Shown one piece after another: positions 1 through 49,976 of a stretch of 60,303 nucleotides of DNA (its first letter is position 1; each line of letters starts with the position of its first letter). The notes below the pieces were generated by a model that made no database searches, was not told the DNA's origin, and worked only from the letters and a program-made list of their open reading frames with translations. The position numbers were made by a program, and so were the translations under genes. This stretch comes from Candidatus Zambryskiibacteriota bacterium (GTDB taxonomy: Bacteria; Patescibacteriota; Minisyncoccia; Phycocordibacterales; DATDWN01), in assembly GCA_003173855.1 (NCBI GenBank), contig PPGI01000010.1, forward strand, positions 1-60,303, read 5' to 3'.

Positions 1-70
1 CGAGGAGACGTACAATAGTACGTTGACGAGAATTTTTCGAAGTCCAACAACGAAATGCGCCAGTTTTGGA
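1..70 (-). repeat. Partial palindromic intergenic element, family 1 (cut by window edge)
   Basis: Reverse complement cgttgttggacttcgaaaaattctcgtcaacgtactattgtacgtctcctcg aligns with 7592-7645; lies just after the rnj stop. Confidence 0.7.
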
Positions 71-76
71 AGTTTT

Positions 77-1864
77 CTACACTCCTAAGATTACAGGGAT
101 GACTATAGGTTTCTTCGCAGTTTTTTGGAACAAGAATCTAGCCACTTCGTCAGCAAGTGTTGCTTTAACTAGATCAAAATCGATTGGATTCATGCCAGCT
201 GTGGTGTTTTCAACTGTTTTTTTGATAATCATTCGGGCGTGATTTAGAAGTTCCTGTGATTCACGAAGATAAACAAAACCTCGAGAAATAATATCTGGAG
301 ATTTTTTCAATTTTCCTGTTTTAGTATTGATTGAAACAACGACAAGAAAGATTCCGTCTTGAGCAAGCATTTTTCTGTCTCGCATAACCATTTCCTGAAC
401 ATTTCCAACAGAGAAACCATCAACAAGTACCAGATTTGAAGGCACTTTTTCTTTCAGCATTCGGATTTTCTGGCCTTGGTCATAAATTTCTACGATTGAA
501 CCATTGTCTGGAATAACAATATTTTCTTTTGGATGTCCGAGCGATTGGGAAAGTTCAGCATGCTGGCAAAGCATGTAGTGGTTTCCGTGAACTGGCATAA
601 AGAATTTGTAAGGAATTTGTTGGTGAATCCATTTAAGTTCGTCTCGGTTTCCGTGTCCTGAAGCATGAATGTCAGAATCAAGATATGTAACAATTTTAGC
701 ACCAGATCGGTAAAGGTTGTCTTTCAGATTAATAACTGACCTGTAGTTTGTTGGAATAACAGAAGAGGAGAGGAGGACAGTGTCAGTTGGTTTTAAGTGA
801 ACATATTTGTGAGTTTTATTTGCAATACGCATTAGAGCTGCAAATTCCTCACCTTGGGCACCAGTTACAAGCATAACAATCCTATCTGGCGGATAATTTT
901 CAATATCTTCAAGAGGAATGATGTTTGTTACTTCAGCAAGTTTTAAATGTTTAATGATTTCAATGTTTGATTTCATTGAACGGCCTTCAATCACCATTTT
1001 CTTTCCGTATTTTTCTGCAGCCTTTATGATAGCGATGATTCGTTCAACTTGAGAAGCAAACGTAGCAATGATCAATCGGCTTTTGGTTTCTTTGATAAAA
1101 CGATCAATGTTTTCGATAACCACATCTTCTGAAAGTGAAAACCCGGGTTTTTCAATCGAAGTTGAGTCCATCGTAAGCAAAAGCACATTCATGTCTTTAA
1201 ACATTTTGTACTGCTCGACTTCTTCTTCCGTTGGAACACCTTTGACGTTATCAACACGAACATCTTCAATGAAAACAATATTTCCATAAGGAGTCTCAAT
1301 GATTAATCCCATTGAATCGGGAATAGTGTGTGAAATAGGAAATGTTTTTACTCGAAGTTGTCCGACTGTGATAGCTTCGTTGCCATCAATAATTGCGATA
1401 TCGAGTGGTTTTAAGTGAGGAAATTCTTCCTGGCGTTTTTTAATCATCACTGCACCGAATTGTCTTGTATAAATTTTTGGATAGCCAATTCGATCAATGA
1501 TAAATGGAATGCCGCCAATGTGATCTAGGTGACCATGAGTTATAAAAAGAGCCCGAATTCGATCTTTATTATCTTCAAGATATTTAGTGTTTGGCAAAAT
1601 GTAATCAATTCCAGGAGTATCTTCGTCTTTAAATTGAAAACCAGCATCAATAATGATGATATCGTCTTTATATTCAATAGCTGTCATATTTCGGCCGACT
1701 TCCTCAACTCCTCCAAGCGGAATAACTCGAATACTGTCTCCGATAGGCGGGATAACATCCTCAGTTTTTTTAGTCATTTTTAACGGAATGTCTCGACGAC
1801 CAAATTGTCTCCTAGGTCGGGGACCGCGCGCATGATGTCTTGATTCTTGTGTTTGATTTTCCAT
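77..1864 (-). CDS. rnj: Ribonuclease J
   Basis: GGVEEVGRNMT start, THGHLDHIG metallo-beta-lactamase motif, HASGH, MPVHG, SRGFVY C-terminal motif. Confidence 0.95.
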   Translation of the reverse strand: MENQTQESRHHARGPRPRRQFGRRDIPLKMTKKTEDVIPPIGDSIRVIPLGGVEEVGRNMTAIEYKDDIIIIDAGFQFKDEDTPGIDYILPNTKYLEDNKDRIRALFITHGHLDHIGGIPFIIDRIGYPKIYTRQFGAVMIKKRQEEFPHLKPLDIAIIDGNEAITVGQLRVKTFPISHTIPDSMGLIIETPYGNIVFIEDVRVDNVKGVPTEEEVEQYKMFKDMNVLLLTMDSTSIEKPGFSLSEDVVIENIDRFIKETKSRLIIATFASQVERIIAIIKAAEKYGKKMVIEGRSMKSNIEIIKHLKLAEVTNIIPLEDIENYPPDRIVMLVTGAQGEEFAALMRIANKTHKYVHLKPTDTVLLSSSVIPTNYRSVINLKDNLYRSGAKIVTYLDSDIHASGHGNRDELKWIHQQIPYKFFMPVHGNHYMLCQHAELSQSLGHPKENIVIPDNGSIVEIYDQGQKIRMLKEKVPSNLVLVDGFSVGNVQEMVMRDRKMLAQDGIFLVVVSINTKTGKLKKSPDIISRGFVYLRESQELLNHARMIIKKTVENTTAGMNPIDFDLVKATLADEVARFLFQKTAKKPIVIPVILGV

Positions 1865-1869
1865 ATGAA

Positions 1870-3615
1870 TTAATTATTATTTTGTTTTGCAAAAAATTTC
1901 CAAACGTTATTTGTCTCAATGTACCATTTATATACATTTCCAAACCGCTCATTTGCAGTTGTAAGAGTTCCTAATTCCACACCGTGGACTTTATTTGGAA
2001 CAATGTAGATAAAATATGGAGCGTAGGTGAATACTGCCGGTACGTCGTTTGTTATTTCATTGTTTATACCAGATAAGTTATCCTTTTGTAAATCCGGATC
2101 ATTTGTTTTTCTAAAATTTTCAAGCATTTTGTCAGCACGAAGATTCGTATAAAGTGCAATATTTAATCCTGGACTGACACGTTCTGAAGAATGCCAAAAT
2201 GGATAAAGATCAAGATCTCGTCCGACCACTTCGCCAAAAAGAAGCGAATCGTATTTTCGATTTCGAATAATATTTTGATTTAAATCTCCGAGTTCAAAAA
2301 TTTTTACTTCAACTAAAGCTCCGATTTTTTCCCATTGTTTCTGGAGCAAATAGGCTGCAGCTTTTAATTCAGGTGCGTCACCTGTGGAAATTGAAAATGA
2401 GAGGGTTGTTGTATTTCCTTTTTTATCTTTTTTTTCAAAAATTCCCGAATCATTTTGCTTCCAGCCTGCGCGAGTAAGTATTGCTTCGGCAAGAGTAACT
2501 CTGTCTTCTGAAGATGTCGCTTTATTGCCCAAATTTTGAGGTGGAATAGGAGAATCGATCGGTTCACCATAACCTTGGAGCACAGAATTAATGATTTCCT
2601 GCTTGTCTGTAGCTTTATTTAGAGCGAGTCTTACTTCTTTATTAACCAAAACAGGCGCAACATTTTGATTGAAGAAAACGCCGAAAATTCTCGGCAATGG
2701 TGAAAGCAAAACAATTTCGTTGTCGATTTTTAAATTTGGAAGTTCTTTAGGAGTTACTCCGTGAATACTTTCAACATTTCCGTCTTTAAAGTTTGAAATT
2801 AGATTTTCCATATCAGGATATGATTTGATAACCAAATTTGTGATGTAGGGTTCTCCCAAAGCATATTTATTGAAAGCTTTTAAATGGTATTCAGATGGTA
2901 AACCGCTTCCGTTGTAAGTTATGTAATCTACTTTGTATGGTCCAGAACCAATTGGTTTTGTGTTGTATTGGCTAAATGGAAATTCTTCGTTTGTTGCTTT
3001 GCTCCAAATATGTTTTGGCAATATTCCTGTTGTTAGATTCTCAATAAATGGTGAATAAGCTTGACTTAATGTAAATCTTACAGTTTTATCATCAACTTTT
3101 GTGACTTTTACACCTTGCCAGTTTGCTTCGCGTGGACTCTTAAGGCTTGGGTCTTGTGCTCGCTCCACTGTAAAAACCACATCATCTGCTGTCACTTTTA
3201 TACCATCATGGAATGTGGCATTTTTTAATGTAGCTGTGTATGTTAGGCCATCTTCAGATATGTTGTATGTTTCTGCAAGATCAGGGATCAATTGTCCCGA
3301 TGGGTCAACACGCAAAAGGCCTGAATAAATTAATGTTGAGAGATCTTTATCTGTATCAGATGATGCAAGAATTGGGTTAATGAAACGGGGTGATCCTATA
3401 ACACCTTCAGTCAAAGTTCCTCCATAATCCGGAACTGCTACAAGAAATAATTTATTAACTTGGTAAAGAAGGACAAGCGCACTTATTCCAAATACAAAAA
3501 CCAGAAAATAAAATACAGCTTTTTCTGTTACTGAAAATGACTTGATTACTCGAAGGATTTTGTCCCCGTATGGAATACGCCATCTCTTTTCCTTAAATTC
3601 AAAATTATTATTCAC
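1870..3615 (-). CDS. Peptide ABC transporter substrate-binding protein (family 5, OppA/DppA-like), membrane anchored
   Basis: YGGTLTEG, LIYSGLLR, PDLAE, FHDG..VTADDVVFT, PIGSGPY motifs; N-terminal TM helix. Confidence 0.9.
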   Translation of the reverse strand: MNNNFEFKEKRWRIPYGDKILRVIKSFSVTEKAVFYFLVFVFGISALVLLYQVNKLFLVAVPDYGGTLTEGVIGSPRFINPILASSDTDKDLSTLIYSGLLRVDPSGQLIPDLAETYNISEDGLTYTATLKNATFHDGIKVTADDVVFTVERAQDPSLKSPREANWQGVKVTKVDDKTVRFTLSQAYSPFIENLTTGILPKHIWSKATNEEFPFSQYNTKPIGSGPYKVDYITYNGSGLPSEYHLKAFNKYALGEPYITNLVIKSYPDMENLISNFKDGNVESIHGVTPKELPNLKIDNEIVLLSPLPRIFGVFFNQNVAPVLVNKEVRLALNKATDKQEIINSVLQGYGEPIDSPIPPQNLGNKATSSEDRVTLAEAILTRAGWKQNDSGIFEKKDKKGNTTTLSFSISTGDAPELKAAAYLLQKQWEKIGALVEVKIFELGDLNQNIIRNRKYDSLLFGEVVGRDLDLYPFWHSSERVSPGLNIALYTNLRADKMLENFRKTNDPDLQKDNLSGINNEITNDVPAVFTYAPYFIYIVPNKVHGVELGTLTTANERFGNVYKWYIETNNVWKFFAKQNNN

Positions 3616-3654
3616 GAAATTAGAAAGCGGAAAAATCCGCCAAATTTGAAAATA

Positions 3655-6001: not shown

Positions 6002-6580
6002 ATGCCTGAACAATCATTTTTTGCTCGAAATAAAGTTTTAATTATAGTTTTACTTGTGATTGTAGTTCTAGTTTGGTGGGGAGTTGCTACATACAACTCA
6101 TTTATAAGAGGAGGAGAGCAGATTACTGCACAATGGGCACAAGTTGAAAATCAATACCAAAGGCGTTTTGATTTGATTCCAAATGTTGTAAACACTGTAA
6201 AAGGTGTTGCAAAGCAGGAACAAGCTGTGTTTGGTGAAATTGCTGAAGCTAGAACACATTACGCAGGTGCTGTTACTCCAGACCAAAAAGCAGCTGCGGC
6301 AAGCCAAGTCGAGTCAACACTCGGAAGATTGTTAGTTATTGCTGAAAATTATCCAACCTTGCAATCAAGCCAAGCATATAGGGATTTAATTGTGGAACTC
6401 GAGGGAACAGAAAACAGAATTTCAGTTGAGAGAATGAAATACAATGATCTAGTACGTTCGTACGATACGAAAGTAAAAACTTTCCCAACTTCAGTTTTAG
6501 CAAAACTGTTTGGAGTTAGTGCGCATGAGTACTTCAACGTACCTGAGTCCAATCAACAAGCTCCTCAAGTCCAGTTTTAA
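6002..6580 (+). CDS. lemA: LemA family protein
   Basis: N-terminal TM, WAQVENQYQRRFDLIPN, AENYP.L, ENRISVER..YN, FP...LA..FG. Confidence 0.93.
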   Translation: MPEQSFFARNKVLIIVLLVIVVLVWWGVATYNSFIRGGEQITAQWAQVENQYQRRFDLIPNVVNTVKGVAKQEQAVFGEIAEARTHYAGAVTPDQKAAAASQVESTLGRLLVIAENYPTLQSSQAYRDLIVELEGTENRISVERMKYNDLVRSYDTKVKTFPTSVLAKLFGVSAHEYFNVPESNQQAPQVQF

Positions 6581-6582
6581 TT

Positions 6583-6706
6583 CTTTGTAATTTCTTTTTC
6601 GTCATATTTTTCAGAGAGTACGCGATTTTTCTTCTGAAAAATCGCTCAAGTCCTCGGCCGTCGCCTGCGGAGCCTCTCTTCAAAACATGACTCAACGAAA
6701 TTAAAG
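6583..6706. repeat. Palindromic intergenic element, divergent member of family 2
   Basis: Imperfect inverted ends; terminal catgactcaacgaaatt resembles catagctcaacgagact at 33223-33239; immediately after lemA stop. Confidence 0.5.
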
Positions 6707-7569
6707 TGAAAAAAATATTACTCACATCTCTTCTTTTGTTACCAGCAATTTCTTTTTCTTTTACAGTACCCCAAAAACCAACTGGTTTTGTAAATGATTA
6801 CGCGCACATGCTTAATGCTGATCAAGTTAATCAGCTTGAAGCAAAACTTGATGCATATGAAAAACAAAGTACAAATGAAATTGCAGTCGTTACAATACCA
6901 TCGCTTGATGGAGATACGATTGAAAATGTTGCGCAAGAAATATTCACACAATGGGGAATTGGGAAAAAAGATAAAAATAATGGAGTTTTACTCCTAATTT
7001 CTCTTGCAGATCGTAAGACAAGAATTCAAACGGGATATGGAGTTGAAGGAGAGCTAACTGATATTGAAACATCTTATATTCAAAGTGATGTAATTCGTCC
7101 AGCATTTCAGTCGGGTGATTACTATGGAGGAATAAATAATGCGGTTGATAAAATAATAACCGCGCTGGGTGGAAATAATATTGTTCCAGAAAATTATTCA
7201 AACACGAAGATTGATTTTCCATTTCAGCTTGTATTCTTTTTTATCATTATTTTCTTTCAAATAGTTGTTTCAATTTTGGCACGATCAAAATCTTGGTGGG
7301 GAGGAGGTGTGGTTGGAGGAATTATTGGATTAATAATTTGGCATTTCTTTATTGCTTCGCTTTTATTTGCTATTCCACTTATTTTTATTTTGATTGGATT
7401 TGGATTATTCATTGACTATCACGTCTCACGAAGTTATGACAAATATAAAAATTTTGGTGGTAGGCCACCCTGGTTTTTAGGTGGCGGCGGTGGTTTCGGA
7501 GGCGGCGGTGGGTTTGGGGGGTTTGGGGGAGGTGGATCAGGCGGCGGTGGTTCTAGCGGTTCTTGGTAA
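6706..7569 (+). CDS. TPM-domain (YgcG-like) membrane protein with Gly-rich tail
   Basis: GFVNDYA..L, EIAVVTI.SL, WGIG.K.KNNGVLLLI, RIQTGYGVEG; GGGSGGGGSSGSW tail; canonical lemA neighbour; GTG start. Confidence 0.9.
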   Translation: MKKILLTSLLLLPAISFSFTVPQKPTGFVNDYAHMLNADQVNQLEAKLDAYEKQSTNEIAVVTIPSLDGDTIENVAQEIFTQWGIGKKDKNNGVLLLISLADRKTRIQTGYGVEGELTDIETSYIQSDVIRPAFQSGDYYGGINNAVDKIITALGGNNIVPENYSNTKIDFPFQLVFFFIIIFFQIVVSILARSKSWWGGGVVGGIIGLIIWHFFIASLLFAIPLIFILIGFGLFIDYHVSRSYDKYKNFGGRPPWFLGGGGGFGGGGGFGGFGGGGSGGGGSSGSW

Positions 7570-7687
7570 ATCAACAAAATCACCTCATCTGCGTTGTTGC
7601 AGTTCGATTTTTCTCATTCACCGTACTACTTGTACGACTCACTCGCAAAATCTCCTGCGCCTAGCATCTGAGGCAATTTAGTTGATT
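7569..7687 (+). repeat. Palindromic intergenic element, family 1
   Basis: Ends aatcaacaaaatcacctca / tgaggcaatttagttgatt are inverted repeats; core ccgtactacttgtacg; highly similar to 35648-35752. Confidence 0.85.
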
Positions 7688-7717
7688 TTAAATTGTTGAT
7701 ATAATTTAATGTGAAGT

Positions 7718-8311
7718 ATGACTGATGATTTAAAAGCAAAAATTGCTGAACTAGAGAACCAAGTTCACGAGCTTGAGAAAGATTTAATTCACGACTCACT
7801 TACTGGATTAAAAACTCGTGCTTTTTTTGAAGAAGAAACAAATACCTATCTCGCAACTATTTCAAAGGCAGTAGAAGGTGGACCACGAAAAAATTGGTTT
7901 GGTTTCAGAAATTTAAGCATTTTATTTTTTGATATTGATCATTTTAAAAAAATAAATGATACGTACGGACATGATGTTGGGGATATGGTTTTAAAAAAAG
8001 TTGCAAATAAAATTAATAAAAATGTTAGAGAAGGTGATACTGTTGCAAGATGGGGAGGAGAAGAAATGGTGGCGTCGCTTTTAGGCGCAAATGAGGAGGA
8101 TGCTAAAGATAAAGCTGAAAGAATTAGAAAAAAAATAGAACAGTTAGAGTTTGAAGGAAAGCCTGATTTAAAAGTAACAATAAGCATAGGAATAGCTAAA
8201 AATTTCGAAAATTCTACGGCAAAAGATTTGCTTAAAAATGCTGATCTTGCTTTATATGAAGCCAAGCGAAGTGGTAGAAATAAAGTAGTGGCATTTTCAC
8301 AACTTAAGTAG
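7718..8311 (+). CDS. Diguanylate cyclase (stand-alone GGDEF domain)
   Basis: HDSLTGL, FFDIDHFKKINDTYGHDVGD, RWGGEE active site, REGD I-site, TISIG, AKRSGRN. Confidence 0.92.
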   Translation: MTDDLKAKIAELENQVHELEKDLIHDSLTGLKTRAFFEEETNTYLATISKAVEGGPRKNWFGFRNLSILFFDIDHFKKINDTYGHDVGDMVLKKVANKINKNVREGDTVARWGGEEMVASLLGANEEDAKDKAERIRKKIEQLEFEGKPDLKVTISIGIAKNFENSTAKDLLKNADLALYEAKRSGRNKVVAFSQLK

Positions 8312-11679: not shown

Positions 11680-13038
11680 ATGCCGTCTTACTCAAAAATT
11701 GCCTTATTTTCAGCCATTTTATTGGTATTTTTTACTTCGTCAGCTTATGCTCAAGTTGTTTCTTCAACTCCTCCAACAGTTTCAATCGGAGTAGGAAATG
11801 GCAATACTCCAGCAAATACTGGTCCTCAACATGGCTCAATTTTTCATGGAAACATTCCTGTTTATGCAACTGTAAACGATCCAGATAACGATTTAGAAAA
11901 TTATCACTTTCGAGTTGTGAAAGATGGTGGCAGTTTAGGTTTTACTTGCACAGTTCCAGACGGATTATTTTTGCCTGAAAATCAAGGTTATGCATCATCA
12001 ACTCTTGGAAAAGATGCTTGCGGATATGTTTACAATCAGTCAATTTATACTGGAACCAATTTTACAAACTCAATTATTACTACTTTAAACACAATTGATC
12101 TTGGCGCTTATTCTGGTGATGGAAATTATTGGCTAATTCTTGGTGCTCGAGATACTACAGGAAACCGTACAAATCCTGACTATTTGACTGATTCACAAGT
12201 AGAAATCACTGTTGATAATACAGCTCCCATGACAACAAGTTCAATAGGAAACAGGAGAGATTCTGACTTATTTACAATTTTCGGAACGTCAACTGATACA
12301 AATGGTGTGGCAAACACAACTGTTTCATATGCAAATTTTGATGGAACAAATTGCGGAACTTTTTCACAAGCAGGAATTTTAAATGGGGGAAATACGGCAG
12401 TCTTTCCTTGGACATTCGAATTTAATCCAAATACCGACGGAAATTATTGTCTTTCTGTTTCTAGTACTGATCTCGTAGGAAACAAAGAAACTGATAATAC
12501 AATTGAAACTAATATTCCGTTTCTTTCTTCAACAACTCCAACGCCAACACCTACGCCATCACCAAGTCCAAGTCCAGCACCGTCTCCGTCCCCAACTCCA
12601 GCACCAAATTCAGCTCCTGTAGGAGGAAATGGCCCAATTGTTGGCACATTTGGGAAAATTAATGGTCAAGGATCAAATGACGGACAAGTTCTTGGTGAAT
12701 CAACAACAACACTCCCATCGGGCTGTGTACCTGTACTAACTTCTTACCTAATCAGCGGCGGCAAGAATAATAAAGAAGATGTAAAAACACTCCAGAATTT
12801 TTTGAATAAATATTTTGGAACAAATATTCCAGTAAACGGAATTTTTGGTCCGCAAACTCTTGCCGCAGTTTATAAATTCCAGGCAAAAGAAAGTGAAGAA
12901 GTCTTAATGCCTTGGGTCAGAGCTGGATTGTGGAAGAGCGCAAACCCAACTGGTTACGTTTACAAAACTACATCACGACGAATAAATATGCTGAGCTGCA
13001 TTGGTGAAATAAATATCCCAATGCCGCAGCTTCCTTAA
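11680..13038 (+). CDS. Secreted beta-rich (Ig-like) protein with Pro-Thr/Ser linker and C-terminal peptidoglycan-binding-like domain
   Basis: Signal peptide ending AYA, ITVDNTAP Ig-type motif, TPTPTPTPSPSPSP, DVKTLQNFLN..VNGIFGPQTLAAVYKFQ. Confidence 0.75.
   Translation: MPSYSKIALFSAILLVFFTSSAYAQVVSSTPPTVSIGVGNGNTPANTGPQHGSIFHGNIPVYATVNDPDNDLENYHFRVVKDGGSLGFTCTVPDGLFLPENQGYASSTLGKDACGYVYNQSIYTGTNFTNSIITTLNTIDLGAYSGDGNYWLILGARDTTGNRTNPDYLTDSQVEITVDNTAPMTTSSIGNRRDSDLFTIFGTSTDTNGVANTTVSYANFDGTNCGTFSQAGILNGGNTAVFPWTFEFNPNTDGNYCLSVSSTDLVGNKETDNTIETNIPFLSSTTPTPTPTPSPSPSPAPSPSPTPAPNSAPVGGNGPIVGTFGKINGQGSNDGQVLGESTTTLPSGCVPVLTSYLISGGKNNKEDVKTLQNFLNKYFGTNIPVNGIFGPQTLAAVYKFQAKESEEVLMPWVRAGLWKSANPTGYVYKTTSRRINMLSCIGEINIPMPQLP
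12537..12606 (+). repeat. Pro-Thr/Pro-Ser coding repeat
   Basis: cca/ccg + aca/act/agt codon repeats. Confidence 0.85.
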
Positions 13039-13079: not shown

Positions 13080-14033
13080 ATGGATTTTTTAAAGAAGTGG
13101 TTTGTACCTGGTCAAAAAAATGGCTATAAACCGCATTTATTTTCTGAAACCGGAATAGGTGTTCTTTTTTCTTTGATTATTTTTGTTTTTTTGATAGCTA
13201 GTTTAGGTAATTTTATTATTAGCAGAACTGGTCTAACGGCTTTAGTTTTACCGAATGTTTTAGTTGATGAAGCAAATAGTGATCGACAAGCTCTGCAATA
13301 TAGAGAACTAACAATAAATCCAATACTAGTTCGAGCAGCGCAATTGAAAGCCAATGATATGGCAACTAAAGGTTATTTTGCCCATCAAAGTCCTGATGGA
13401 CATTCGCCATGGTACTGGTTTAGCGAAGCAGGGTATGATTTTAGTTATGCTGGAGAAAACTTGGCAGTAAATTTTACTGATTCAAGTGATGTAAATGCTG
13501 CATGGATGAATTCGCCATCTCACAGAGCAAATATATTAAATAGTAATTTTACTGAAATTGGCATTGCCACTGCAGAAGGAATTTATAACGGAAAAGCCAC
13601 AACATTTGTGGTCGAAATGTTTGGCAGGCCAGCGTTTGAAAATTTGGCTACAAATATAGCTTTAAATGCAGAAACTAAGACAAAAATCGCTACTACAACC
13701 AAAATTGTTCGAACATCGAGTGTTCTTGGTGCTAGTGAGGAAAACGATCTTTATATTGCTGTAAAAAAGGAGAGTGCTGCCACAACTTTTGCCGAAAATA
13801 CAAATTATTCTAATTGGATTGGACGATTGTTCTCTTCTCCAAAAAGAATAATGAGCTTTATTTATATTGTTCTTGCTGTGCTAATTACTATCGGATTAAT
13901 CCTTATGATTGTGATTGAAATAAAAAAACAACATCCAATTTATATTATGTTTGGTCTAGGACTTCTCTTTTTAATGCTTGTTCTTACGTATCTTTATCAA
14001 AATTTATTGTTTGGACCACTTCTCATCGTTTAA
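13080..14033 (+). CDS. CAP/SCP-domain membrane protein
   Basis: AAQLKANDMA..GYFAH.SPDG, YAGENLA, AWMNSPSHRANIL, EIGIA; TM helices at both ends; start moved to MDFLKKW. Confidence 0.9.
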   Translation: MDFLKKWFVPGQKNGYKPHLFSETGIGVLFSLIIFVFLIASLGNFIISRTGLTALVLPNVLVDEANSDRQALQYRELTINPILVRAAQLKANDMATKGYFAHQSPDGHSPWYWFSEAGYDFSYAGENLAVNFTDSSDVNAAWMNSPSHRANILNSNFTEIGIATAEGIYNGKATTFVVEMFGRPAFENLATNIALNAETKTKIATTTKIVRTSSVLGASEENDLYIAVKKESAATTFAENTNYSNWIGRLFSSPKRIMSFIYIVLAVLITIGLILMIVIEIKKQHPIYIMFGLGLLFLMLVLTYLYQNLLFGPLLIV

Positions 14034-14121: not shown

Positions 14122-15180
14122 ATGGAAATAAAAAAGATTGTGAAGCCGAAATTCATTATTTTAAGCCTTTTATTTACACTTATTATCCCGTTTTTCCCAT
14201 TTCCTAATATATCAGGGCTGTGGGCTACAGAGGCTAAAACAAAGCAACATGGCAGGTGGGCAACTGACTCTACACCATCTCCAGATCCAAGTCCTAGCCC
14301 AGTGCCAACACCAAGTCCAAGTCCAGCACCAAGCCCAACTCCAACTCCGACGCCTACACCGACACCAGTTACAAGCCCTACGCCAACTCCAGTAGCAGGA
14401 ACAATACAATGGGGAGCTTATGCTGGAGAAACTGTTAGTGAAATACAAAATTTTGAAACTCTTATGGGCAAACAAACAGAAATTGTAAGTGTCTTTTATG
14501 CATTCACTGATGATTTTCCAACAACTTATCAATCAGCAATTGGCGCAAAAGGGAAAACACTTTTAATTTTTTGGGAGCCAACAACCAATCTTGATCAAAT
14601 AAATAATGGAAACCAAGATGCTTATTTACGTGCTTTTGCCGCTGGAGCCAAAGCTTATGGTTATCCAATAATTCTTGCGCCATTCCATGAAGTTAACGGC
14701 AATTGGGATGTTTGGGATGGAACAGTAAGCAATAACTCTCCAGCCAAGTTTCTAACTGCTTGGAAGCACGTTCATGACCTTTTCATTGGTGTAAATAACG
14801 TTAAATTTGCTTTATCTTATAATGCTGGTTCGGTTCCAGATGTTGTCGGAAATCAAATGAGCGATTACTATCCTGGAGATAATTACGTTGATTATCTTGG
14901 ACTTGATGGCTTCAATTTTGGTTCTCCTTGGCAATCATTTGATGCTATTTTTGCCGTTCCAATAATTGAATTAGAAAGTTACCACAAACCAATTTATATT
15001 TTCTCAATGGCTTCAACTGCTGGAGCGGGGAAGGCTGCATGGATTAGTGATTTTGGATCTGAAGTTTATAAATTCCCAATTTCAGGCTGGGTTTGGTTTA
15101 ATCAAAATGGAACTGATGGAAATTGGCTCGTAAACTCTGATTCAGCTTCATTAACTGCATTCAAGCAAATTTTGCCTTAG
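14122..15180 (+). CDS. GH26-like (beta-mannanase/endoglucanase H family) protein with Pro-Thr linker
   Basis: LLIFWEP, FHEVNGNW, YYPGDNYVDYLGLDGFN, KPIYIF, GWVWFN. Confidence 0.8.
   Translation: MEIKKIVKPKFIILSLLFTLIIPFFPFPNISGLWATEAKTKQHGRWATDSTPSPDPSPSPVPTPSPSPAPSPTPTPTPTPTPVTSPTPTPVAGTIQWGAYAGETVSEIQNFETLMGKQTEIVSVFYAFTDDFPTTYQSAIGAKGKTLLIFWEPTTNLDQINNGNQDAYLRAFAAGAKAYGYPIILAPFHEVNGNWDVWDGTVSNNSPAKFLTAWKHVHDLFIGVNNVKFALSYNAGSVPDVVGNQMSDYYPGDNYVDYLGLDGFNFGSPWQSFDAIFAVPIIELESYHKPIYIFSMASTAGAGKAAWISDFGSEVYKFPISGWVWFNQNGTDGNWLVNSDSASLTAFKQILP
14272..14392 (+). repeat. Pro-Thr/Pro-Ser coding repeat
   Basis: TPSPDPSPSPVPTPSPSPAPSPTPTPTPTPTP. Confidence 0.85.
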
Positions 15181-20828: not shown

Positions 20829-21140
20829 ATGGCTAAGAAGTTATATGTAGGAGGTATTTCTTATGGCACAACAGAACAAGGCCTAAGAGATGCTTTCGCA
20901 CAAGTTGGTGAAGTTGCTTCAGCTTCAATTATCATGGACAGAATGACAGGCAGATCAAAAGGATTCGGTTTCGTCGAAATGGCAAGTGATGCAGATGCTG
21001 AAAAAGCTATCCAAAAGTGGAATGGTCAGGAACTAGATGGACGAAAGCTTACAGTAAATGAAGCTCGTCCAATGGAACCTCGAGCACCACGATCTGGCGG
21101 ATTTGATCGAAATAACGATCGAGGAGGCCGAACTTGGTAA
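20829..21140 (+). CDS. RRM (RNP-1) RNA-binding protein
   Basis: KLYVGG RNP2, GRSKGFGFVEM RNP1, VNEARP, Gly/Arg tail. Confidence 0.95.
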   Translation: MAKKLYVGGISYGTTEQGLRDAFAQVGEVASASIIMDRMTGRSKGFGFVEMASDADAEKAIQKWNGQELDGRKLTVNEARPMEPRAPRSGGFDRNNDRGGRTW

Positions 21141-21269
21141 ATTTTTGATCTTTTTAAATAATTTCTGCGTTGCTCGTTTGCGTTTGCTTCCGTGCAGTAC
21201 TACTTGTACAACCTGGTCGCAATACGCACTCGCGCCTTGAAATTAATTAAAAATTTTCAAAAATTAATT
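21139..21269 (+). repeat. Palindromic intergenic element, family 1 subgroup
   Basis: cgtttgcttccgtgcagtactacttgtacaacctggtcgcaatac is near-identical to 25890-25945; AT-rich inverted ends. Confidence 0.8.
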
Positions 21270-21330
21270 CAAACAAAAAACACCAATTGTGGTGTTTTTT
21301 GTTGTCCAATACTCTGTTAATATTATATAT

Positions 21331-24675: not shown

Positions 24676-24685
24676 ATTGAAAAAT

Positions 24686-24805
24686 AAATCTCATTGAGCC
24701 ATAATTTTTTCAGCGCATCGCGGAGTGCGTGAAGCACGAGCGCGAGGAAATTTTCGAGTACGAAAATATTCCGGTGATAAAAAAATTATGATGAAAAAGA
24801 GATTT
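24686..24805 (+). repeat. Palindromic intergenic element, family 2
   Basis: tttttcagcgcatcgcggagtgcgtgaagcacgagcgcgaggaaa matches the reverse complement of 33175-33220 almost perfectly. Confidence 0.9.
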
Positions 24806-24851
24806 TTGTTGACCAAAATTAGAAGTCCTGTAAAATGTAATCACTAAACAT

Positions 24852-25862
24852 ATGACACTGATTGGAAAAGCAAGTCCCGAAGATATGAATCTCCACCCAC
24901 TGAACTACAAGTGGGCATACGAACTTTACAATCAAGCAGTTAGAAACACATGGTTTCCTCACGAAATTGCTCTTAAAGAAGATTTAGACGACTTTGCAAA
25001 GATGACAGATGATGAAAAGCATGCAGTGAAATTTTTAATGGCTTTTTTCAATCCTGCAGAGCTAATTGTAAATCGTTCCATTGCACTTGGGATCTATCCA
25101 TATCTAAAATCTCCAGAATGTCATCTTTATTTAGCAAAGCAAATGTGGGAAGAAGCAAATCACTGTGTTGCTTTTGAATATGTGCTTGAGACATTCCCAT
25201 TTGATCGAACTACTGTTTTCAATACTCACCTTGAGGTGCCTTCAATGATTGCTAAGGAAGTTTACATTAACAAGTACATGAAGCGAATGACTGACGACAG
25301 GCTCGATATCTCAACTGTGGATGGCAAAAAAGACTTTATTCGCAATCTTGTAGCAACCAATATTGTTATGGAGGGTGTTTGGTTTTATTCTGGCTTCATG
25401 GTTGCTCTATCATTTCGTCAGAGAAATCAGTTGCGAAATTTTGGTTCGATGATCAACTGGGTGCTACGAGATGAGTCACTTCACCTTAAATTTGGAATAA
25501 ATCTAATTCACAATATTTTAGAAGAAAATACAGAACTTTTGACAGAAGAGTTTGCAGCAGAAATTCGAAACATCATTATTGAAGGAGTGGATCTTGAAGT
25601 TAATTACAACAAAGACCTTTTTCCAAACGGAATTCTGGGATTAAATGCTGATTATGTAAACCAATACGTGCAGTACGTTGCCGACAGGCGATTGCAGGAG
25701 CTTGGAATGCCAAAATATTACAATGTAACCAATCCCGCAAAATGGATGTCAACTGCAACTGATGTTTTTGAATTGGTTAACTTTTTTGAATCGCAAAATA
25801 CAAGCTATGAGGTTGATTCACACGCATCAACTAAGAAAGAAACTCCTAGCGTCGCTGAATAG
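24852..25862 (+). CDS. nrdB: Ribonucleotide reductase small subunit, class Ic-type
   Basis: PAELIV, EEANHCVAF, MEGVWFYSGF, RDESLH, NFFE..NTSY. Confidence 0.93.
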   Translation: MTLIGKASPEDMNLHPLNYKWAYELYNQAVRNTWFPHEIALKEDLDDFAKMTDDEKHAVKFLMAFFNPAELIVNRSIALGIYPYLKSPECHLYLAKQMWEEANHCVAFEYVLETFPFDRTTVFNTHLEVPSMIAKEVYINKYMKRMTDDRLDISTVDGKKDFIRNLVATNIVMEGVWFYSGFMVALSFRQRNQLRNFGSMINWVLRDESLHLKFGINLIHNILEENTELLTEEFAAEIRNIIIEGVDLEVNYNKDLFPNGILGLNADYVNQYVQYVADRRLQELGMPKYYNVTNPAKWMSTATDVFELVNFFESQNTSYEVDSHASTKKETPSVAE

Positions 25863-25981
25863 AACTTCCCAATTTGGCCAATTTCTTTGTCGCAGGCTCC
25901 GTTTGCTCCCGCGCAGTATTTTTTATACAGCTTGGTCGCAATACTCGCTTGCTTCGCGAACTTGTCTCAAATTTGAAAGTT
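25863..25981 (+). repeat. Palindromic intergenic element, family 1 subgroup
   Basis: Inverted ends aacttcccaatttgg / caaatttgaaagtt; core shared with the 21139-21269 element. Confidence 0.8.
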
Positions 25982-26002
25982 TGTGGTGACTTTTAAATTA
26001 AC

Positions 26003-26524: not shown

Positions 26525-26592
26525 ACTACGAGCCTGGTGTATATGCACCAGGCTTCGCTTTTGATATAATTTTTACATAATTAAAAAAATTC

Positions 26593-32250: not shown

Positions 32251-33117
32251 ATGAAAACATTGAGAGAGATTGTTCTGGACGCAAGAAATCGAAAAGTTGC
32301 TGTTGGCCATTTCAATATTTCTAATCTTGAAACATTGTGGGGAATTTTTAACGCTGCAAAGGGCCTCGATGTTCCAGTTATTATCGGAGTTTCGGAAGGC
32401 GAGCGTGATTTTATCGGGGTTCCACAAGTTGTTGCTTTAGTAAAAAGTTTCCACGAGGAATTTGATTATCCGATTTATCTAAATGCTGATCACACATATT
32501 CGTTTGATAAGGTAAAAGTGGCTATTGATGCAGGTTTTGATAGTGTTATTTTTGATGGAGCAAAACTTGAGTTCGAAGATAATATAAAACAAACAAAACA
32601 ATGTGTTGAATATGCTCGAAGTACTGGTCGAGATGTTTTAGTTGAAGGAGAGCTTGGTTTTATAGGAGTTTCTTCAAAAATTTTGGATGCTGTGCCAGAA
32701 GGAGTTGATTTATCAGAAAAATCGCTGACTGATCCGGAAAAAGCTAAACAATTTGTCGAACAAACAGGTATTGATATGTTAGCACCTGCTGTTGGAAACT
32801 TTCACGGCATGCTTCGCGGTGGAGTTGATCCAAAATTAAATATCGAACGTATTAAGGCCATTTCCCAGACTATAGGAATCCCTCTTGTACTTCACGGAGG
32901 TTCAGGAAATCAGGAGGATGATTTTCGTGGAGCAATCGCAAATGGTATGGCGATAATTCACATTAACACCGAAATTCGTGCTGCTTACAAACAGGGATTA
33001 AAAATAGGGTTAAATGAAAATCCTGACGAAATTGCTCCGTATAAATTCCTAAAACCAGCAGTAAAAGCAGTCCAAGATGTGGCTGAGAAAAAACTGAGAG
33101 TATTCAACAATCTTTAA
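32251..33117 (+). CDS. fba: Class II fructose-bisphosphate aldolase
   Basis: FNISNLE, NADHT, DSVIFDG, VEGELG, GNFHG, LVLHGGSG, HINTE. Confidence 0.92.
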   Translation: MKTLREIVLDARNRKVAVGHFNISNLETLWGIFNAAKGLDVPVIIGVSEGERDFIGVPQVVALVKSFHEEFDYPIYLNADHTYSFDKVKVAIDAGFDSVIFDGAKLEFEDNIKQTKQCVEYARSTGRDVLVEGELGFIGVSSKILDAVPEGVDLSEKSLTDPEKAKQFVEQTGIDMLAPAVGNFHGMLRGGVDPKLNIERIKAISQTIGIPLVLHGGSGNQEDDFRGAIANGMAIIHINTEIRAAYKQGLKIGLNENPDEIAPYKFLKPAVKAVQDVAEKKLRVFNNL

Positions 33118-33247
33118 TCAAGTCTCTTATTCACTATGACTTTTTCATCACCGGAATAATTTTTTGCTAAAAATTTTCCTCGCGCTCGTGTCTTCACGCA
33201 CTCCGTGATGCGCTGAAAAAGTCATAGCTCAACGAGACTTGATTAAA
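33113..33247 (-). repeat. Palindromic intergenic element, family 2
   Basis: Perfect 14-bp IR TTTAATCAAGTCTC/GAGACTTGATTAAA overlapping the fba stop; interior matches 24686-24805 in reverse. Confidence 0.9.
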
Positions 33248-35390: not shown

Positions 35391-35654
35391 ATGAAAAAGG
35401 AAATACATCCACAAAATTACAGACCAGTCCTATTTATCGACAACTCAAATGACGCAGAGTTCGTTATTTCATCAACTGTAAATACGACCGAAACTGGTAA
35501 GGCAAAGGATGGCAAAACATATCCACTATATAGGCTTGAAATCACAAGTGCTTCGCATCCATTTTATACTGGAACAGAAAAGGCACTCGACACCGCAGGA
35601 AGAGCAGAACGGTTCCGAGCAAAGCAAGCTAAATCACAGAAATCAAAAAAATAA
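35391..35654 (+). CDS. rpmE2: 50S ribosomal protein L31 type B (Zn-free)
   Basis: MKKEIHP.NY, LEITSASHPFYTG, DTAGR.ERF; no Cys. Confidence 0.95.
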   Translation: MKKEIHPQNYRPVLFIDNSNDAEFVISSTVNTTETGKAKDGKTYPLYRLEITSASHPFYTGTEKALDTAGRAERFRAKQAKSQKSKK

Positions 35655-35752
35655 CCTCATCTACTTTGTTGCAGTTCAATTTTTCTCGTTCACCTTACTA
35701 CATGTAAGGCTCACTCGAAAAATTTCCTGCGCCTAGTATCTGAGGCTATTTT
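35648..35752 (+). repeat. Palindromic intergenic element, family 1
   Basis: cctcat..gttgcagttc..tttttctc.ttcacc..ctcactcg..tcctgcgcctag.atctgaggc, collinear with 7569-7687. Confidence 0.9.
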
Positions 35753-35787
35753 ATTAATTTCTGATTATTACTTGTATAATTAATTGA

Positions 35788-36765
35788 ATGGATCTAGAAA
35801 AATTCCAAAATAATCCAAAAACTTCTTATCTTGTTTCTGAATACAAGCGTCTTTTGACGCAAGAAGAAGAAACAAAGAAAATGATAGAGAGTGATCCGAC
35901 TCTGCGTGATTTGGCGCACGGAGAACTTGAGGAATTACGTGTACAAAAAGAAAATTTGATGCAACAAATGCAAGATATTGTTAGTGACGAAGAAAAAGAA
36001 GATGAATTTCCAAACGAAATTATTCTTGAAGTTCGTGCCGGTGCCGGTGGAGAAGAAGCATCTCTTTTTGCCGAAGAACTTGCCAGTATGTATACAAAAT
36101 ATGCCCAAAACCAAGGTTGGAGAGTCTCAAAAATTGACGAGTCACAAAGTGCAGTTGGGGGATACAAGGAAGCTTCTTTTGAGATTCGTGGCAAGGATGT
36201 TTATAAACAATTACGTTTTGAAACCGGAGTCCATCGTGTTCAACGTGTGCCAGCCACAGAAAAGATTGGTCGGGTGCACACTTCAACAGCATCAGTTGCT
36301 ATTCTTCCAGTTCGAAAGAAAACCTCTGTTGTTATTAGTCCAGCCGATTTAGAAATCGAAACCTCTCGTTCCGGTGGAGCAGGTGGGCAGAATGTAAACA
36401 AAGTAGAAACTGCTGTGCGTATTATTCATAAGCCAACTGGGATTGATGTCCGCTCGACTGCCGAAAGAAGCCAACTTAAAAATCGTGAACGGGCAATGTC
36501 CATTCTCCAAGCCAAGTTAGAGCTGAAAAAAGAAGAAGAAGAAGCAGCAAAATATTCTGCTGACAGGAAAAGTCAGATTGGTACAGCAGACAGGTCAGAA
36601 AAGATTAGGACTTATAATATTTTGCAGGACAGAATTACTGATCATCGCATCAAGCAATCATGGCATAATATTGATCGAATTTTGGAAGGTGGGATTGACC
36701 CTATTGTCGAAGCTCTGGAAAATTTTGATGGAAAGTCGGTTGTAAGTATTGAGGACGAAGAATAA
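35788..36765 (+). CDS. prfA: Peptide chain release factor 1
   Basis: GGQ motif ([11 protein letters not shown]), PAT specificity motif, [11 protein letters not shown]. Confidence 0.95.
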
Positions 36766-37527: not shown

Positions 37528-38016
37528 TTGACAAATATGAATATAGGAACAGATCTCGTAAAAAAATTGCGTGACATGACAGGTGTCTCAGTCATGGAAT
37601 GTCGCAAAGCCTTAGAAGAGGCAGCTGGGGATATCGAAAGGGCAAAAGAAGTATTGCTTAAAAAAAGCGCTGGTATGGCCGCTAAAAAGGGCGACAGAAC
37701 TCTTGGGGCAGGTATTGTTGCAAGCTATATTCACACTACCGGAACAGTTGGGGTTATGATAGAATTATTAAGTGAGACAGACTTCGTTGCACAAAACGAA
37801 GAATTTAAAAAACTGGCTCGCGACATAGCAATGCAGATTGCTGCCACTGATCCTCAAGCGATTAGAAAAGAGGATGTAAAAGACGGCAGTGAGGCATTGC
37901 TAGATCAATCATTTATTAAAAATCCACAATTAACGATTGCGAACTTAATTGAAAGTGCGATTCAGAAATTCGGCGAAAGAATAGAAATTGGCAAGTTCGT
38001 TCGTTATTCAATTTAA
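37528..38016 (+). CDS. tsf: Elongation factor Ts (short form)
   Basis: VKKLRDMTG.SVMECRKAL, ELLSETDFVA, MQIAA; 162 aa; follows rpsB. Confidence 0.95.
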   Translation: MTNMNIGTDLVKKLRDMTGVSVMECRKALEEAAGDIERAKEVLLKKSAGMAAKKGDRTLGAGIVASYIHTTGTVGVMIELLSETDFVAQNEEFKKLARDIAMQIAATDPQAIRKEDVKDGSEALLDQSFIKNPQLTIANLIESAIQKFGERIEIGKFVRYSI

Positions 38017-38023
38017 AATTATT

Positions 38024-38392
38024 ATGAATACAGCTATTGTGTTGTTTTTTGCATCTCTAGTAGGAATCTGCGGGATGCTTGCCTGGAAAGCTTTTGAAAT
38101 CAAGGTTAAAAGAATTCACTTTATTTCAAATCTATTCAGAAAAGGAGATGAAATTGTTCACAATTTTGAAAATAAACTAGAGTTAAAATATAAGCGATAT
38201 GAAATGATCGCAAACCTTTTTGTTTTTGATTTCGTGCCAGCTTACGCTTATGAAAAATTAGTCAAAATGAAAGACTATGTGGCTAAGAAATACTATATGA
38301 CTGGTGAAGGCTTTCGTGGCCGACGAGTATTGCGATCTGATGGGTCGGTTTCTTTCTTTCTTGAGCAACTTTCAGACGAAAAAGTTAAATAA
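38024..38392 (+). CDS. Hypothetical membrane protein
   Basis: N-terminal TM, 122 aa, co-oriented with rpsB-tsf. Confidence 0.65.
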   Translation: MNTAIVLFFASLVGICGMLAWKAFEIKVKRIHFISNLFRKGDEIVHNFENKLELKYKRYEMIANLFVFDFVPAYAYEKLVKMKDYVAKKYYMTGEGFRGRRVLRSDGSVSFFLEQLSDEKVK

Positions 38393-38439
38393 TTCCAAAA
38401 TTACCTCATCCTGCATTTGAGGCAATTTTGAAATTATTT
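38387..38439. repeat. Collapsed family 1 element (termini only)
   Basis: aaataattccaaaattacctca / tgaggcaattttgaaattattt, 20 of 22 complementary, same cctca/tgagg junction as 7569 and 35648. Confidence 0.75.
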
Positions 38440-38478
38440 GAAAATTATAGGAAATCGTGCTAACTTTAAAGGGTTTTC

Positions 38479-49484: not shown

Positions 49485-49488
49485 AAGT

Positions 49489-49514
49489 AGCGCCGCACGC
49501 ACGCGGCGCTTTTA
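49489..49514 (+). terminator. Intrinsic terminator
   Basis: AGCGCCGC-ACGCAC-GCGGCGCT-TTT. Confidence 0.7.
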
Positions 49515-49556
49515 AATTATAAAAAAATTTGCAATAATTACTTACCGGAGGTTCTT

Positions 49557-49817
49557 ATGCGAGAAAAAGATTTTCCGCCGAAGATTAAGGTTCCAGATGG
49601 TGGTGGGTTGGTGTTCATGCTTTATGGTTACCTTCTTGTCATCGTTGGAGCAATTGTCATCTTGGCAATTGTAACTATCGCTCTTGTCATCGCTGGGTTC
49701 AAATATCTTGCACTGTTCGGTGCAGTTTGTGTTGGTGTTGGACTTGCACTTGCCAATGAAGGAGGTAAGAGATTGAAAAAAGCCAAACTAGAAGAAAAAT
49801 CTAGTAAGGCAGCCTGA
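49557..49817 (+). CDS. Small two-TM hypothetical protein
   Basis: SD ggagg; hydrophobic hairpin; basic C-terminus. Confidence 0.65.
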   Translation: MREKDFPPKIKVPDGGGLVFMLYGYLLVIVGAIVILAIVTIALVIAGFKYLALFGAVCVGVGLALANEGGKRLKKAKLEEKSSKAA

Positions 49818-49854
49818 AGCCGTTGTTGCATGAATTCGCAATAACGGCTTTTTA

Positions 49855-49976
49855 AATTCGAAAAATTTTTGCTTAAGTTCGAGGCGGAATGAGAAAATGT
49901 GAGGAGCCTTACAAAATGTTAGGTGACGAGTATTTTTGAAATTCCAACGATGAAATTAAGCAAAAAGATTCGAATT
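49855..49976 (-). repeat. Palindromic intergenic element, family 1
   Basis: IR aattcgaaaaatttttgcttaa / ttaagcaaaaagattcgaatt overlapping the dnaE stop; reverse complement core ctcgtcacc..tgtaaggctc matches 35686-35712. Confidence 0.8.

Follow-up and report, generated by a model that had tools for sequence, protein, structure and literature searches.

What are the palindromic elements that sit at the stop codons of several genes in a contig of a Candidatus Zambryskiibacteriota bacterium (PPGI01000010.1), and what keeps them there? In this stretch of 60,303 nt, which was analysed as a whole and is called the window below, a first-pass annotation had listed seven related palindromes of one family (family 1) and had offered two explanations: an insertion mechanism that makes an inverted copy of the target, or selection for a long RNA hairpin in the 3' untranslated region (3' UTR) around a conserved core. 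All seven copies are present, and their coordinates proved right to within a few bases. The evidence presented here points to a mobile gene-end module of a kind undescribed for these organisms. The account that we favour, and to which we give about an even chance, is that family 1 consists of dispersed, non-autonomous hairpin modules of ~125 bp, similar to REPINs (repetitive extragenic palindromic (REP) doublets forming hairpins) and to miniature inverted-repeat transposable elements (MITEs), which are mobile or duplicative and have a terminator or insulator effect at gene ends. Family 1 is distinguished by strict anchoring at stop codons in one orientation, by variable ends round a conserved middle and by conservation of the fold on the template strand.

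The window is chromosomal DNA of 36-40% G+C, and its plus strand is the leading strand from end to end (the cumulative GC skew rises monotonically). Its housekeeping genes include those for RNase J, GroES/EL, ribonucleotide reductase, a split transketolase, GAPDH, L31, RF1, S2, EF-Ts, PheRS, GyrB, DnaE, RNase III (56158..56850) and SMC, and the N-terminal subunit of the transketolase shares 90% identity with its counterpart in a metagenome-assembled genome (MAG) of Candidatus Zambryskibacteriota. Family 1 is represented by five full copies, a sixth (Z) that the window edge truncates and a seventh (G) with an internal deletion, each being a ~125-bp imperfect palindrome or what is left of it. 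A hidden Markov model and a covariance model of the family were both built from the five full copies. The copies are as follows, together with a terminator next to one of them:

Copy Z, 1..79, minus strand: cut by the window start (partial nhmmer match, E=5e-4); its first bases are the TAG at which the RNase J gene (77..1864, minus strand) stops, and it reads TAGAAAACTTCCAAAACTGG... through the GTAC tip.
Copy A, 7567..7690, plus strand: A/E subfamily, 109 bits with the covariance model; the hairpin base takes in the TAA stop (7567-7569) of a TPM-domain gene, and the TGaTATAAT -10 box of a GGDEF gene follows.
Copy C, 21138..21269, plus strand: C/D subfamily, 99.6 bits; begins at the TAA stop of the gene for an RRM RNA-binding protein (20829..21140).
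Canonical terminator, 21274..21301, plus strand: A-tract, GC hairpin and T-tract, 3' of copy C.
Copy D, 25860..25982, plus strand: C/D core with AACTTCC-type ends, 92.7 bits; begins at the TAG stop of nrdB and is followed by a TTGACA..TATACT promoter.
Copy E, 35640..35762, plus strand: A/E subfamily, 114.5 bits; the four final codons of L31 and its TAA stop (35652-35654) fall within the 5' arm and find their complement in the 3' arm, and the prfA promoter comes next.
Copy G, 38385..38442, plus strand: a 58-nt hairpin of arms only, with the core deleted, which encloses the TAA stop of the open reading frame (ORF) at 37988..38392.
Copy F, 49853..49977, minus strand: F/Z subfamily, 96.3 bits; abuts the stop of dnaE (49975..53208, minus strand) and lies between convergent genes, adjoining the terminator of the ORF at 49557..49817.

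The genes whose ends are occupied in this way thus encode RNase J, a TPM-domain protein, the RRM protein, NrdB, L31, a 134-aa ORF product and DnaE. For the five full copies nhmmer gave E values of 3e-24 to 2e-29, copy G matched weakly and there was no other match in the 60 kb; the covariance model gave E values of 1e-16 to 2e-21 for the window copies. Each copy folds as one long imperfect hairpin with a GTAC-N5-GTAC tip (z = -2.6 to -9.2 against dinucleotide shuffles), and all seven align in one register once they are read in the sense of the gene whose stop they touch. Three subfamilies (A/E, C/D and F/Z) have this architecture in common, with a core identity of 87-88% within A/E and 47-67% otherwise; accordingly, the core sequence quoted in the first-pass annotation fits copies A and E, whereas C/D and F/Z have diverged from it. 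Copy C lies inside a 3' UTR, since the canonical terminator stands downstream of it, and the same arrangement, with the element between the stop of the RRM gene and a canonical terminator, was found at 8 orthologous loci. Around one gene end in ten in the window carries a long hairpin module, and many gene ends in related genomes do so too.

To examine the family beyond the window, we used the 80 best loci from species-representative genomes, all of them MAGs of Patescibacteria/Parcubacteria (labelled L001 etc.), of which the 40 genomes with transketolase identity of at least 78% are called close relatives and the other 40 more distant. A pattern scan of metagenomes for the A/E core yielded a further 98 loci, and the covariance model was run on 80 of these. 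It made 47 matches in the window and the 80 loci of the relatives: 40 copies beyond those of the window, present in 27 of the 40 close relatives, were added in this way, and only one weak match came from the 40 more distant genomes. In the metagenome contigs 82 copies were found. The core is thus not limited to the window copies, and it covaries. Standard pairs were kept in 91.7% (genome set) and 95.0% (metagenome set) of the modelled pair cells, compared with 62% and 74% after shuffling and ~40% when the partner was slid by 1-3 columns, and changes on both sides of a pair were observed at 31 of the 33 modelled pairs in the genome set and at 28 of 33 in the metagenome set. The proposal of a long hairpin around a conserved core is therefore strongly supported. 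The conserved core, ~80 nt in length, lies inside one long imperfect palindrome whose outer parts are A-run and T-run arms. It is composed of two shoulder blocks, CGTTGTTGC and GCGCCTAG on the mRNA strand, flanking a covarying stem that is capped by GTAC-N5-GTAC. The internal shoulder blocks (CATCTGCGTTGTTGC and GCGCCTAGCATCT, sense strand) are the best-conserved parts, and covariation is found in the stem between them and in the arms outside them. No element matched any Rfam family, either at the gathering score or at E<=5.

All copies in the window have a stop codon in, or no more than 2 nt from, the hairpin base. For the wider sample we took the unique full copies with flanks from relatives and metagenomes (n=110, used for stop-codon and arm counts) and recorded the stop of any ORF of at least 60 codons relative to the sense 5' edge of the covariance model. 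Such a stop lies at -17 to +6 in 97 of the 110 copies (76 TAA, 18 TAG and 3 TGA), compared with only 30 of 110, at scattered positions, in a reverse-orientation control. The claim that copies start at or overlap the stop of the upstream gene thus applies to all seven window copies and to these 97, and the placement is not random. Copies F and Z abut lagging-strand genes and are flipped along with them; therefore, orientation follows the gene and not the replication strand. Family 1 copies fill the short gap that separates the stop from the next promoter or from a convergent gene. The clear exceptions are orthologous copies in L016, L019 and L039: they are reversed and stand in the nrdA-nrdB spacer, 37-46 nt downstream of the stop of nrdA and 12-20 nt upstream of the start of nrdB, and no promoter is visible there. 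Two sharper rules did not hold. An insertion preference for TA-containing stops is uninformative, because stop usage at the copies (78% TAA, 19% TAG and 3% TGA) equals the background of the clade (71%, 24% and 5%). The rule that the inverted repeat ends exactly at the stop was also rejected: on crude outward extension of the repeat in the 97 anchored copies, the ends were distributed broadly around the stop codon, with 23 within +/-3 nt of it and 57 having the stop inside.

The two strands of the element do not fold equally well. All 6 of the 6 window copies compared, and 44 of the 46 copies that have flanks, folded better on the strand antisense to the abutted gene; the mean difference was 10.3 kcal/mol (for one window copy, -45.5 for antisense vs -33.0 kcal/mol for sense). 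In the modelled pairs of the genome set, read on the antisense strand, there were 107 G.U vs 20 A.C and 44 G.A/A.G vs 5 C.U; the independent metagenome set gave 202 G.U vs 24 A.C and 51 G.A vs 5 C.U, with G.U at 21 of the 33 positions. The antisense core is a near-continuous helix with up to three tandem 5'-GA/3'-AG motifs, where the mRNA strand has C.U and C.A mismatches. By contrast, in the same loci the canonical terminators that separate co-directional genes (n=42) had 13 G.U vs 3 A.C on the sense strand. Mutational bias was considered as a cause of the asymmetry and ruled out, because the canonical terminators are biased in the opposite direction and copies on either chromosome strand follow their gene. 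Selection for a sense 3'-UTR RNA hairpin, as the first-pass annotation had suggested, is not supported by these data, since mismatches that are C.A or C.U on the mRNA are G.U or tandem G.A on its complement. Evolution preserves the family 1 fold on the template strand, that is, the complement of the mRNA, and it is therefore a single-stranded form of this strand that is under constraint. Judged by sequence evolution, the antisense strand would be the functional one. Antisense RNA is the only form that naturally "knows" the orientation of the gene; a single-stranded DNA (ssDNA) intermediate would require a host filter against stable mRNA hairpins on stop codons. The sense folds are still stable (-27 to -37 kcal/mol, z = -2.6 to -7.8).

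Comparison of orthologous loci revealed presence/absence polymorphism at three junctions: tktN/tktC (between the two transketolase genes), rpmE-prfA and the one between the 134-aa ORF and tRNA-Thr. At tktN/tktC (29655-29665 in the window), most genomes have gaaTAAnATG with a 4-nt gap, and the window has a 4-nt overlap. Four genomes carry a family 1 copy and a promoter-bearing spacer here; in L001 a homologous spacer is present but the element is not. All four filled sites have their arms and 3' flank in common, and their cores are of two different types. The filled sites read gaaTAA[AACTTCC..GAAAGTT]T(T/A)A; set against the empty site of L001, this would fit a duplication of TA or TAA, in a sequence that is of low complexity. 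The junction is an insertion hot spot in general (L001-L039), where we also observed a ~170-nt structured insert (L002, L009, L015, L028), a GC-rich insert that is ~270 nt long and ends in a terminator belonging to it (L007, L021, L026) and small ORFs for membrane proteins.

The rpmE-prfA spacer contains a canonical terminator in L012, L018, L019, L020 and L029, a family 1 copy in five loci of the genome scan and in the window, an element of a second family (family 2, see below) in five or six, and other palindromes elsewhere; merely a remnant of the 5' half of family 1 is left in L009. Among the unrelated palindromes in this spacer (L033/L037; L009, L022, L028) are TAGATAGTCTA..TAGACTATA and a 'tgtaaaatgcaaaat' type. 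The variety of palindrome types suggests that several hairpin families compete for one gene-end niche. Copy G adds 45 nt between the stop and the tRNA-Thr -35 box; six relatives (L016, L036, L010, L024, L029, L175) lack it at the same junction. Family 1 cores group by genome and not by site: copy E is nearer to its paralogue A (0.87) than to the copies at rpmE sites elsewhere (0.67-0.75), and L026 and L021 have cores that are 97% identical at different genes. Therefore, repeated insertion or conversion of cores must have occurred, and strict vertical descent is excluded.

Cores and arms are decoupled. The outer 8-10 bp vary among copies, yet they pair within each copy and may include the last codons of the host gene (for example TAAAACGACC../..GGTCGTTTTA, TAGAAGCC../..GGCTTCTA and AAGCGCCC../..GGGCGCTT). 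The 14 nt directly outside the model are distinct in 108 of the 110 copies, and the 5' and 3' flanks of the same copy pair at a mean of 7.1 of 12 positions vs 3.5 for flanks of different copies. The observation that terminal repeats are paired within a copy and differ between copies therefore stands, with the qualification that there is a common arm plan, with the order A-run, ~3 variable nt, A-run in the 5' arm and matching T-runs in the 3' arm (its signal stops ~8 nt outside the model, usually at the T of the stop codon), and that one large subfamily has common ends, AACTTCCAAA..TTTGGAAGTT, directly after TAA or TAG. An A-run of at least 4 was found in the arms of 78 of the 110 copies and a T-run of at least 4, lying inside the 3' arm, in 77. 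The partners of TAG stops in the 3' arm are CTA, so that the repeat is inverted and not direct. L087 and L138, which belong to one 505-kb contig, have cores that are 98% identical and outer arms that differ and are each self-complementary; L088 and L151 share a core at 95% identity, and their arms are AT-rich in one and GC-rich in the other. At the rpmE site the 5' arm is made of genuine L31 codons (the protein ends in ..KAKKSTK* in L060, with the element, and in ..KAKKSK* in L012, without it). Of 18 positions in the 3' arm, 17 are complementary to these codons, and in five to seven genomes whose tails differ the arm changes along with them. The arms of L087 and L138 and the 3' arm at L31 fit the idea that an inverted copy of the target is made on insertion, but gene conversion of cores or compensatory change could produce them too, and the variable stretch of the arms is short.

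With regard to the role at gene ends, no canonical terminator was found within 110 nt of 85 of 108 copies, and the downstream flank usually holds the -10 box of the next gene, often only 6-12 nt before the ATG. TGnTATAAT-like -10 boxes at this distance were observed at 7700-7720, 35770-35790 and 26003-26031 of the window and in the flanks of many loci; a -10 box so near the ATG suggests leaderless mRNAs, or mRNAs with very short leaders, in this clade. It is most likely that the effect on the host, as far as the arrangement of the sequence can tell, would be that of a bidirectional terminator or insulator, because the element lies between the stop and the -10 box, mostly without another terminator, has an A-run/hairpin/T-run order in both directions and occupies sites that hold bidirectional terminators in relatives. 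No internal promoter that was convincing could be seen by eye.

Family 2 is unrelated to family 1 and consists of ~125-nt Y-shaped hairpins that enclose the upstream stop codon. The window has three elements:

Family 2 element, 24683..24806, minus strand: lies reversed between nrdA and nrdB, with the nrdA stop ~10 nt away.
Family 2 element, 33113..33247, plus strand: the base, TTTAATCAAGTCTC / GAGACTTGATTAAA, takes in the TAA stop of fba.
Family 2, weak third copy, 6589..6701, plus strand: after a LemA-family gene (6002..6580), E=4.9e-5; antisense fold -48.0 vs sense -37.6 kcal/mol.

Others were found at L001 18932-19062 and elsewhere. The ends of this family read TAAC..GTTA; 17 of the 27 full copies adjoin a stop (an example of their arms is TAACGAAG../..CTTCGTTA), and 24 of the 27 fold better on the antisense strand.

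As already noted in the first pass, there is no transposase in the window: a Pfam scan of essentially all ORFs of at least 80 aa (a few short overlapping ORFs were skipped) turned up neither a transposase nor an integrase nor a HUH protein. Viral contigs, scanned with two patterns, gave no matches, and hence there is no sign of a phage carrier. Among the relatives, a motif search followed by Pfam identified seven genes of the Y1 type, or REP-associated tyrosine transposases (RAYTs), in L023, L064, L044, L078, L070 and L052, with PF01797 confirmed in L023 and L064 (29 and 36 bits, cut-off 23). Those located at L023 13193-13849 (flanks 13160-13184 and 13860-13880), L064 283-960 and L078 11850-12290 are examples. 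Each RAYT gene is bordered on both sides by its own palindrome of 20-34 nt, and none by family 1 or family 2; the flank in L023 reads TGTGGAAGACGGTCTTCCACA followed by GTAG, the classic REP/RAYT arrangement. It seems, then, that REP/RAYT units exist in the phylum. RAYT as a demonstrated mobiliser of family 1 was rejected, as every RAYT gene has a short REP of its own, and the link is a lead only, because most of these genes occur in distant genomes without family 1.

Several known systems resemble family 1 in part. Enterobacterial repetitive intergenic consensus sequences, also called intergenic repeat units (ERIC/IRU), and Correia-type MITEs are imperfect palindromes of ~100-150 bp in transcribed intergenic regions which fold as RNA hairpins, insert at TA, influence neighbouring mRNAs in a way that depends on their orientation and can serve as terminators or as targets of RNases. 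They keep identical terminal repeats in every copy and occur in both orientations, whereas in family 1 the termini vary, one orientation prevails (97 of 110), the stop lies inside the stem and the antisense fold is conserved. Mycobacterial interspersed repetitive units (MIRUs) are small repeats in intergenic regions, with ends that run into the stop and start codons of the genes on either side; they are tandem direct repeats inside operons that carry tiny ORFs, and family 1 is a single long hairpin instead. Sequence-conserved "mobile terminator" repeats have been reported in some bacteria. The A-run/hairpin/T-run layout and the replacement of a canonical terminator at rpmE-prfA are reminiscent of bidirectional intrinsic terminators.

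The analogy with REPINs moved by RAYTs, which the first-pass annotation had raised, is a fair one as far as form is concerned, but the search for a cognate RAYT failed, since the RAYT genes of the relatives are flanked by other, short REPs. REPINs are extragenic, non-autonomous elements of ~100 nt with inverted conserved blocks and a spacer hairpin that is kept by compensatory changes (PMC3116915). REPs lie mostly downstream of genes, their termini have been reported to supply TAG stops, and the presence of G.T pairs in REP stems has been taken to indicate a function in single-stranded form (PMC3733652). Family 1 is likewise a palindrome at a 3' extragenic site, with two conserved blocks ~48 nt apart and a covarying stem between them. 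On the other hand, its blocks are not inverted copies of one unit (the loop reads GTTGTT vs TAGGCG), its ends are variable and its middle conserved, its orientation to the abutted gene is strict, and it lacks the unpaired GTAG/CGTC tag, GYAG-like GCAG/GTAG being found only inside the paired antisense block. Integron attC sites are a further parallel. Recombination at attC uses only the folded bottom strand (PMC2727003), and family 1 is similar in its folded bottom strand (44 of 46), antisense to the upstream ORF, and, as in the Vibrio cholerae repeats (VCRs), in its overlap with the stop, fixed orientation and length of 110-130 nt. It differs in having no cassette arrays, no integrase in the window and housekeeping genes as hosts, and in lacking RYYYAAC..GTTRRRY boxes at the base, which is variable around a conserved centre, the reverse of attC.

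Family 1 is confined to a Zambryskibacteria-like clade of Patescibacteria. Taken as a gene-end module that moves or duplicates, it would have the following life. The modules would come and go at orthologous junctions, take one another's place and stand in for ordinary terminators. A single-stranded form of the template would be under constraint, either as antisense RNA entering the gene end or as an ssDNA intermediate used for spread. The outer stem would be rebuilt at each site against the last codons of the host, giving copy-specific ends, and the free 3' arm would come to match the constrained 5' arm, whether through templated copying, for instance strand switching inside the palindrome, or through compensatory change. 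From the comparisons above we infer mobility and the enzyme behind it, the terminator or insulator activity and the rebuilding of arms. A bolder version, which we consider rather unlikely, is that families 1 and 2 spread as a folded single template strand and build their outer stem by inverted capture of the target through strand switching.

Several observations weigh against the module as we picture it. A canonical terminator follows 23 of the 108 copies, including all those at RRM genes, and there the element is not needed for termination. The stem of ~50 bp with an AT-rich base is unlike tested intrinsic terminators, which have 5-14 GC-rich pairs; the usual hallmarks of these, a short GC-rich stem with a U-tract directly after it in the sense RNA, are lacking, and it is the sense RNA that folds less well. 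No antisense promoter conserved at a constant distance from the element was seen, and the more stable strand of the reversed nrdA-nrdB copies in L016, L019 and L039 is probably read through inside the operon, because no promoter is visible before the nrdB start. The likeness of cores across sites could stem from gene conversion instead of transposition. In the outer arms there is no asymmetry (29 G.U vs 27 A.C), so their maintenance differs from the constraint on the core. No element halves flanking an ORF, as in an autonomous copy, were present in ~1.9 Mb of loci, and neither a mobilising enzyme nor an autonomous partner nor an unambiguous target duplication was found in the window and the loci.

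A rival reading is a purely selfish element spreading through ssDNA by the logic of REPINs or IS200-IS605, with one strand as the folded substrate of an enzyme and no function for the host; insertions at stop codons would persist only if the mRNA carries the weakly folding complement, since translation termination would suffer from a very stable hairpin on the stop. We regard this as unlikely on balance but as a serious contender. It accounts for the strand-specific conservation of the fold with G.T- and G.A-type mismatches, the presence/absence polymorphism, the near-identical cores at different sites, the decayed remnant in L009 and the deleted copy G, as well as for reversed copies that lie 37-46 nt from the nrdA stop and not on it; Y1/RAYT enzymes are present in the phylum, and two inverted conserved blocks with a covarying spacer resemble the REPIN layout (PMC3116915). 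Yet the RAYT genes are flanked by their own short REPs and never by family 1, which has no GTAG tag, and orientation follows the gene, unlike the replication-strand bias of IS608-type transposition. The reversed family 2 copy in the window is only ~10 nt from the nrdA stop. In addition, some junctions always hold a hairpin of some sort, be it a terminator or one of several families, which suggests that a hairpin is needed there. An ordinary MITE with terminal inverted repeats (TIRs), moved in trans by a DDE transposase and inserting at TA or TAA with a short palindromic duplication, appears decidedly unlikely. Because TA is self-complementary, the repeat would only seem to run through the stop, and the large subfamily with AACTTCCAAA..TTTGGAAGTT ends right after TAA or TAG, the filled tktN sites that fit a TA or TAA duplication relative to L001 and the 94 of 97 abutted stops that are TAA or TAG all agree with such a mechanism. 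However, stop usage does not depart from the background, and the termini of the A/E copies vary (108 of 110 flanks distinct) around a conserved interior, the reverse of a TIR element, which has the same termini in every copy; here, cores that are 95-98% identical have different arms. Covariation over the whole length and strand asymmetry are unexpected for double-strand cut-and-paste, no autonomous copy or split halves occurred in the ~1.9 Mb, and the CTA partners of TAG stops indicate an inverted repeat.

A stabilising or regulatory RNA element in the sense 3' UTR, whose pyrimidine-rich loops might be bound by the RRM protein of the clade, is very unlikely in our view, even though the gene of that protein always carries a copy, which lies before a canonical terminator in at least nine genomes and must therefore be transcribed in sense. 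The sense folds mentioned above (-27 to -37 kcal/mol), the conserved CU-rich unpaired blocks on the sense strand and the fixed position relative to the stop would also suit such an element. What speaks against it is that compensatory evolution went through sense C.A and not sense G.U (107:20 and 202:24), a bias opposite to that of canonical terminators in the same genomes. Finally, attC-like single-strand recombination sites of an integron-type system, scattered over the chromosome, seem extremely improbable. In family 1, as at attC sites (PMC2727003), it is the bottom strand, taken with respect to the ORF upstream, that folds, and the stop overlap, fixed orientation and length of 110-130 nt are like those of chromosomal VCR repeats; the TAAC..GTTA ends of family 2 are also suggestive. 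Copies of family 1, however, stand 5-14 kb apart after housekeeping genes and not in cassette arrays, no integrase is encoded in the window, and the RYYYAAC/GTTRRRY boxes are not conserved at the base, where the sequence varies while the middle is conserved.

Several other features of the window were observed. The last 21 nt of tRNA-Ser(CGA) (19382-19469) are repeated exactly 128 nt downstream (19598-19618), which looks like the attachment-site scar of an integrative element. After copy D there is a 730-nt gene-free spacer (25995-26592) with the TTGACA..TATACT promoter; it includes a GC-richer stretch of ~270 nt (26031-26304) with a predicted minimum free energy of -95.6 kcal/mol (a value without shuffle control) that ends in a canonical terminator and is followed by a small ORF (~26361-26525). 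This stretch had no match in Rfam or in the loci of relatives and may be an undescribed non-coding RNA. One ORF (55106-56017) joins a NusB domain to a NUDIX hydrolase domain, and four other ORFs in the window match NUDIX. Three large genes for cell-wall/glycan enzymes contain imperfect periodic repeats of 6 to 12 nt (CCAAC/ACCTAC-type; 12525-12621, 14261-14402 and 18706-18840), which probably encode low-complexity linkers.

Patescibacteria, also known as the candidate phyla radiation (CPR), are ultra-small bacteria with tiny, tightly packed genomes in which gene-end signals and mobile DNA are almost unstudied, and in a limited search of the open literature we found no description of such repeats in them. 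Family 1 is a module that is exchangeable with ordinary terminators. As it extends into coding sequence, it can shape the C-termini of proteins and mislead the annotation of stops and terminators. The presence of template-strand G.U and tandem G.A in two unrelated families raises the question of whether pervasive antisense transcription is stopped at stop codons in these organisms or whether the elements spread as ssDNA. Inverted capture of the target, if true, would be a route of insertion that targets stop codons and does without fixed terminal repeats, and if the ends are really rebuilt from the target, the mechanism would lie outside the current classes of bacterial mobile elements.

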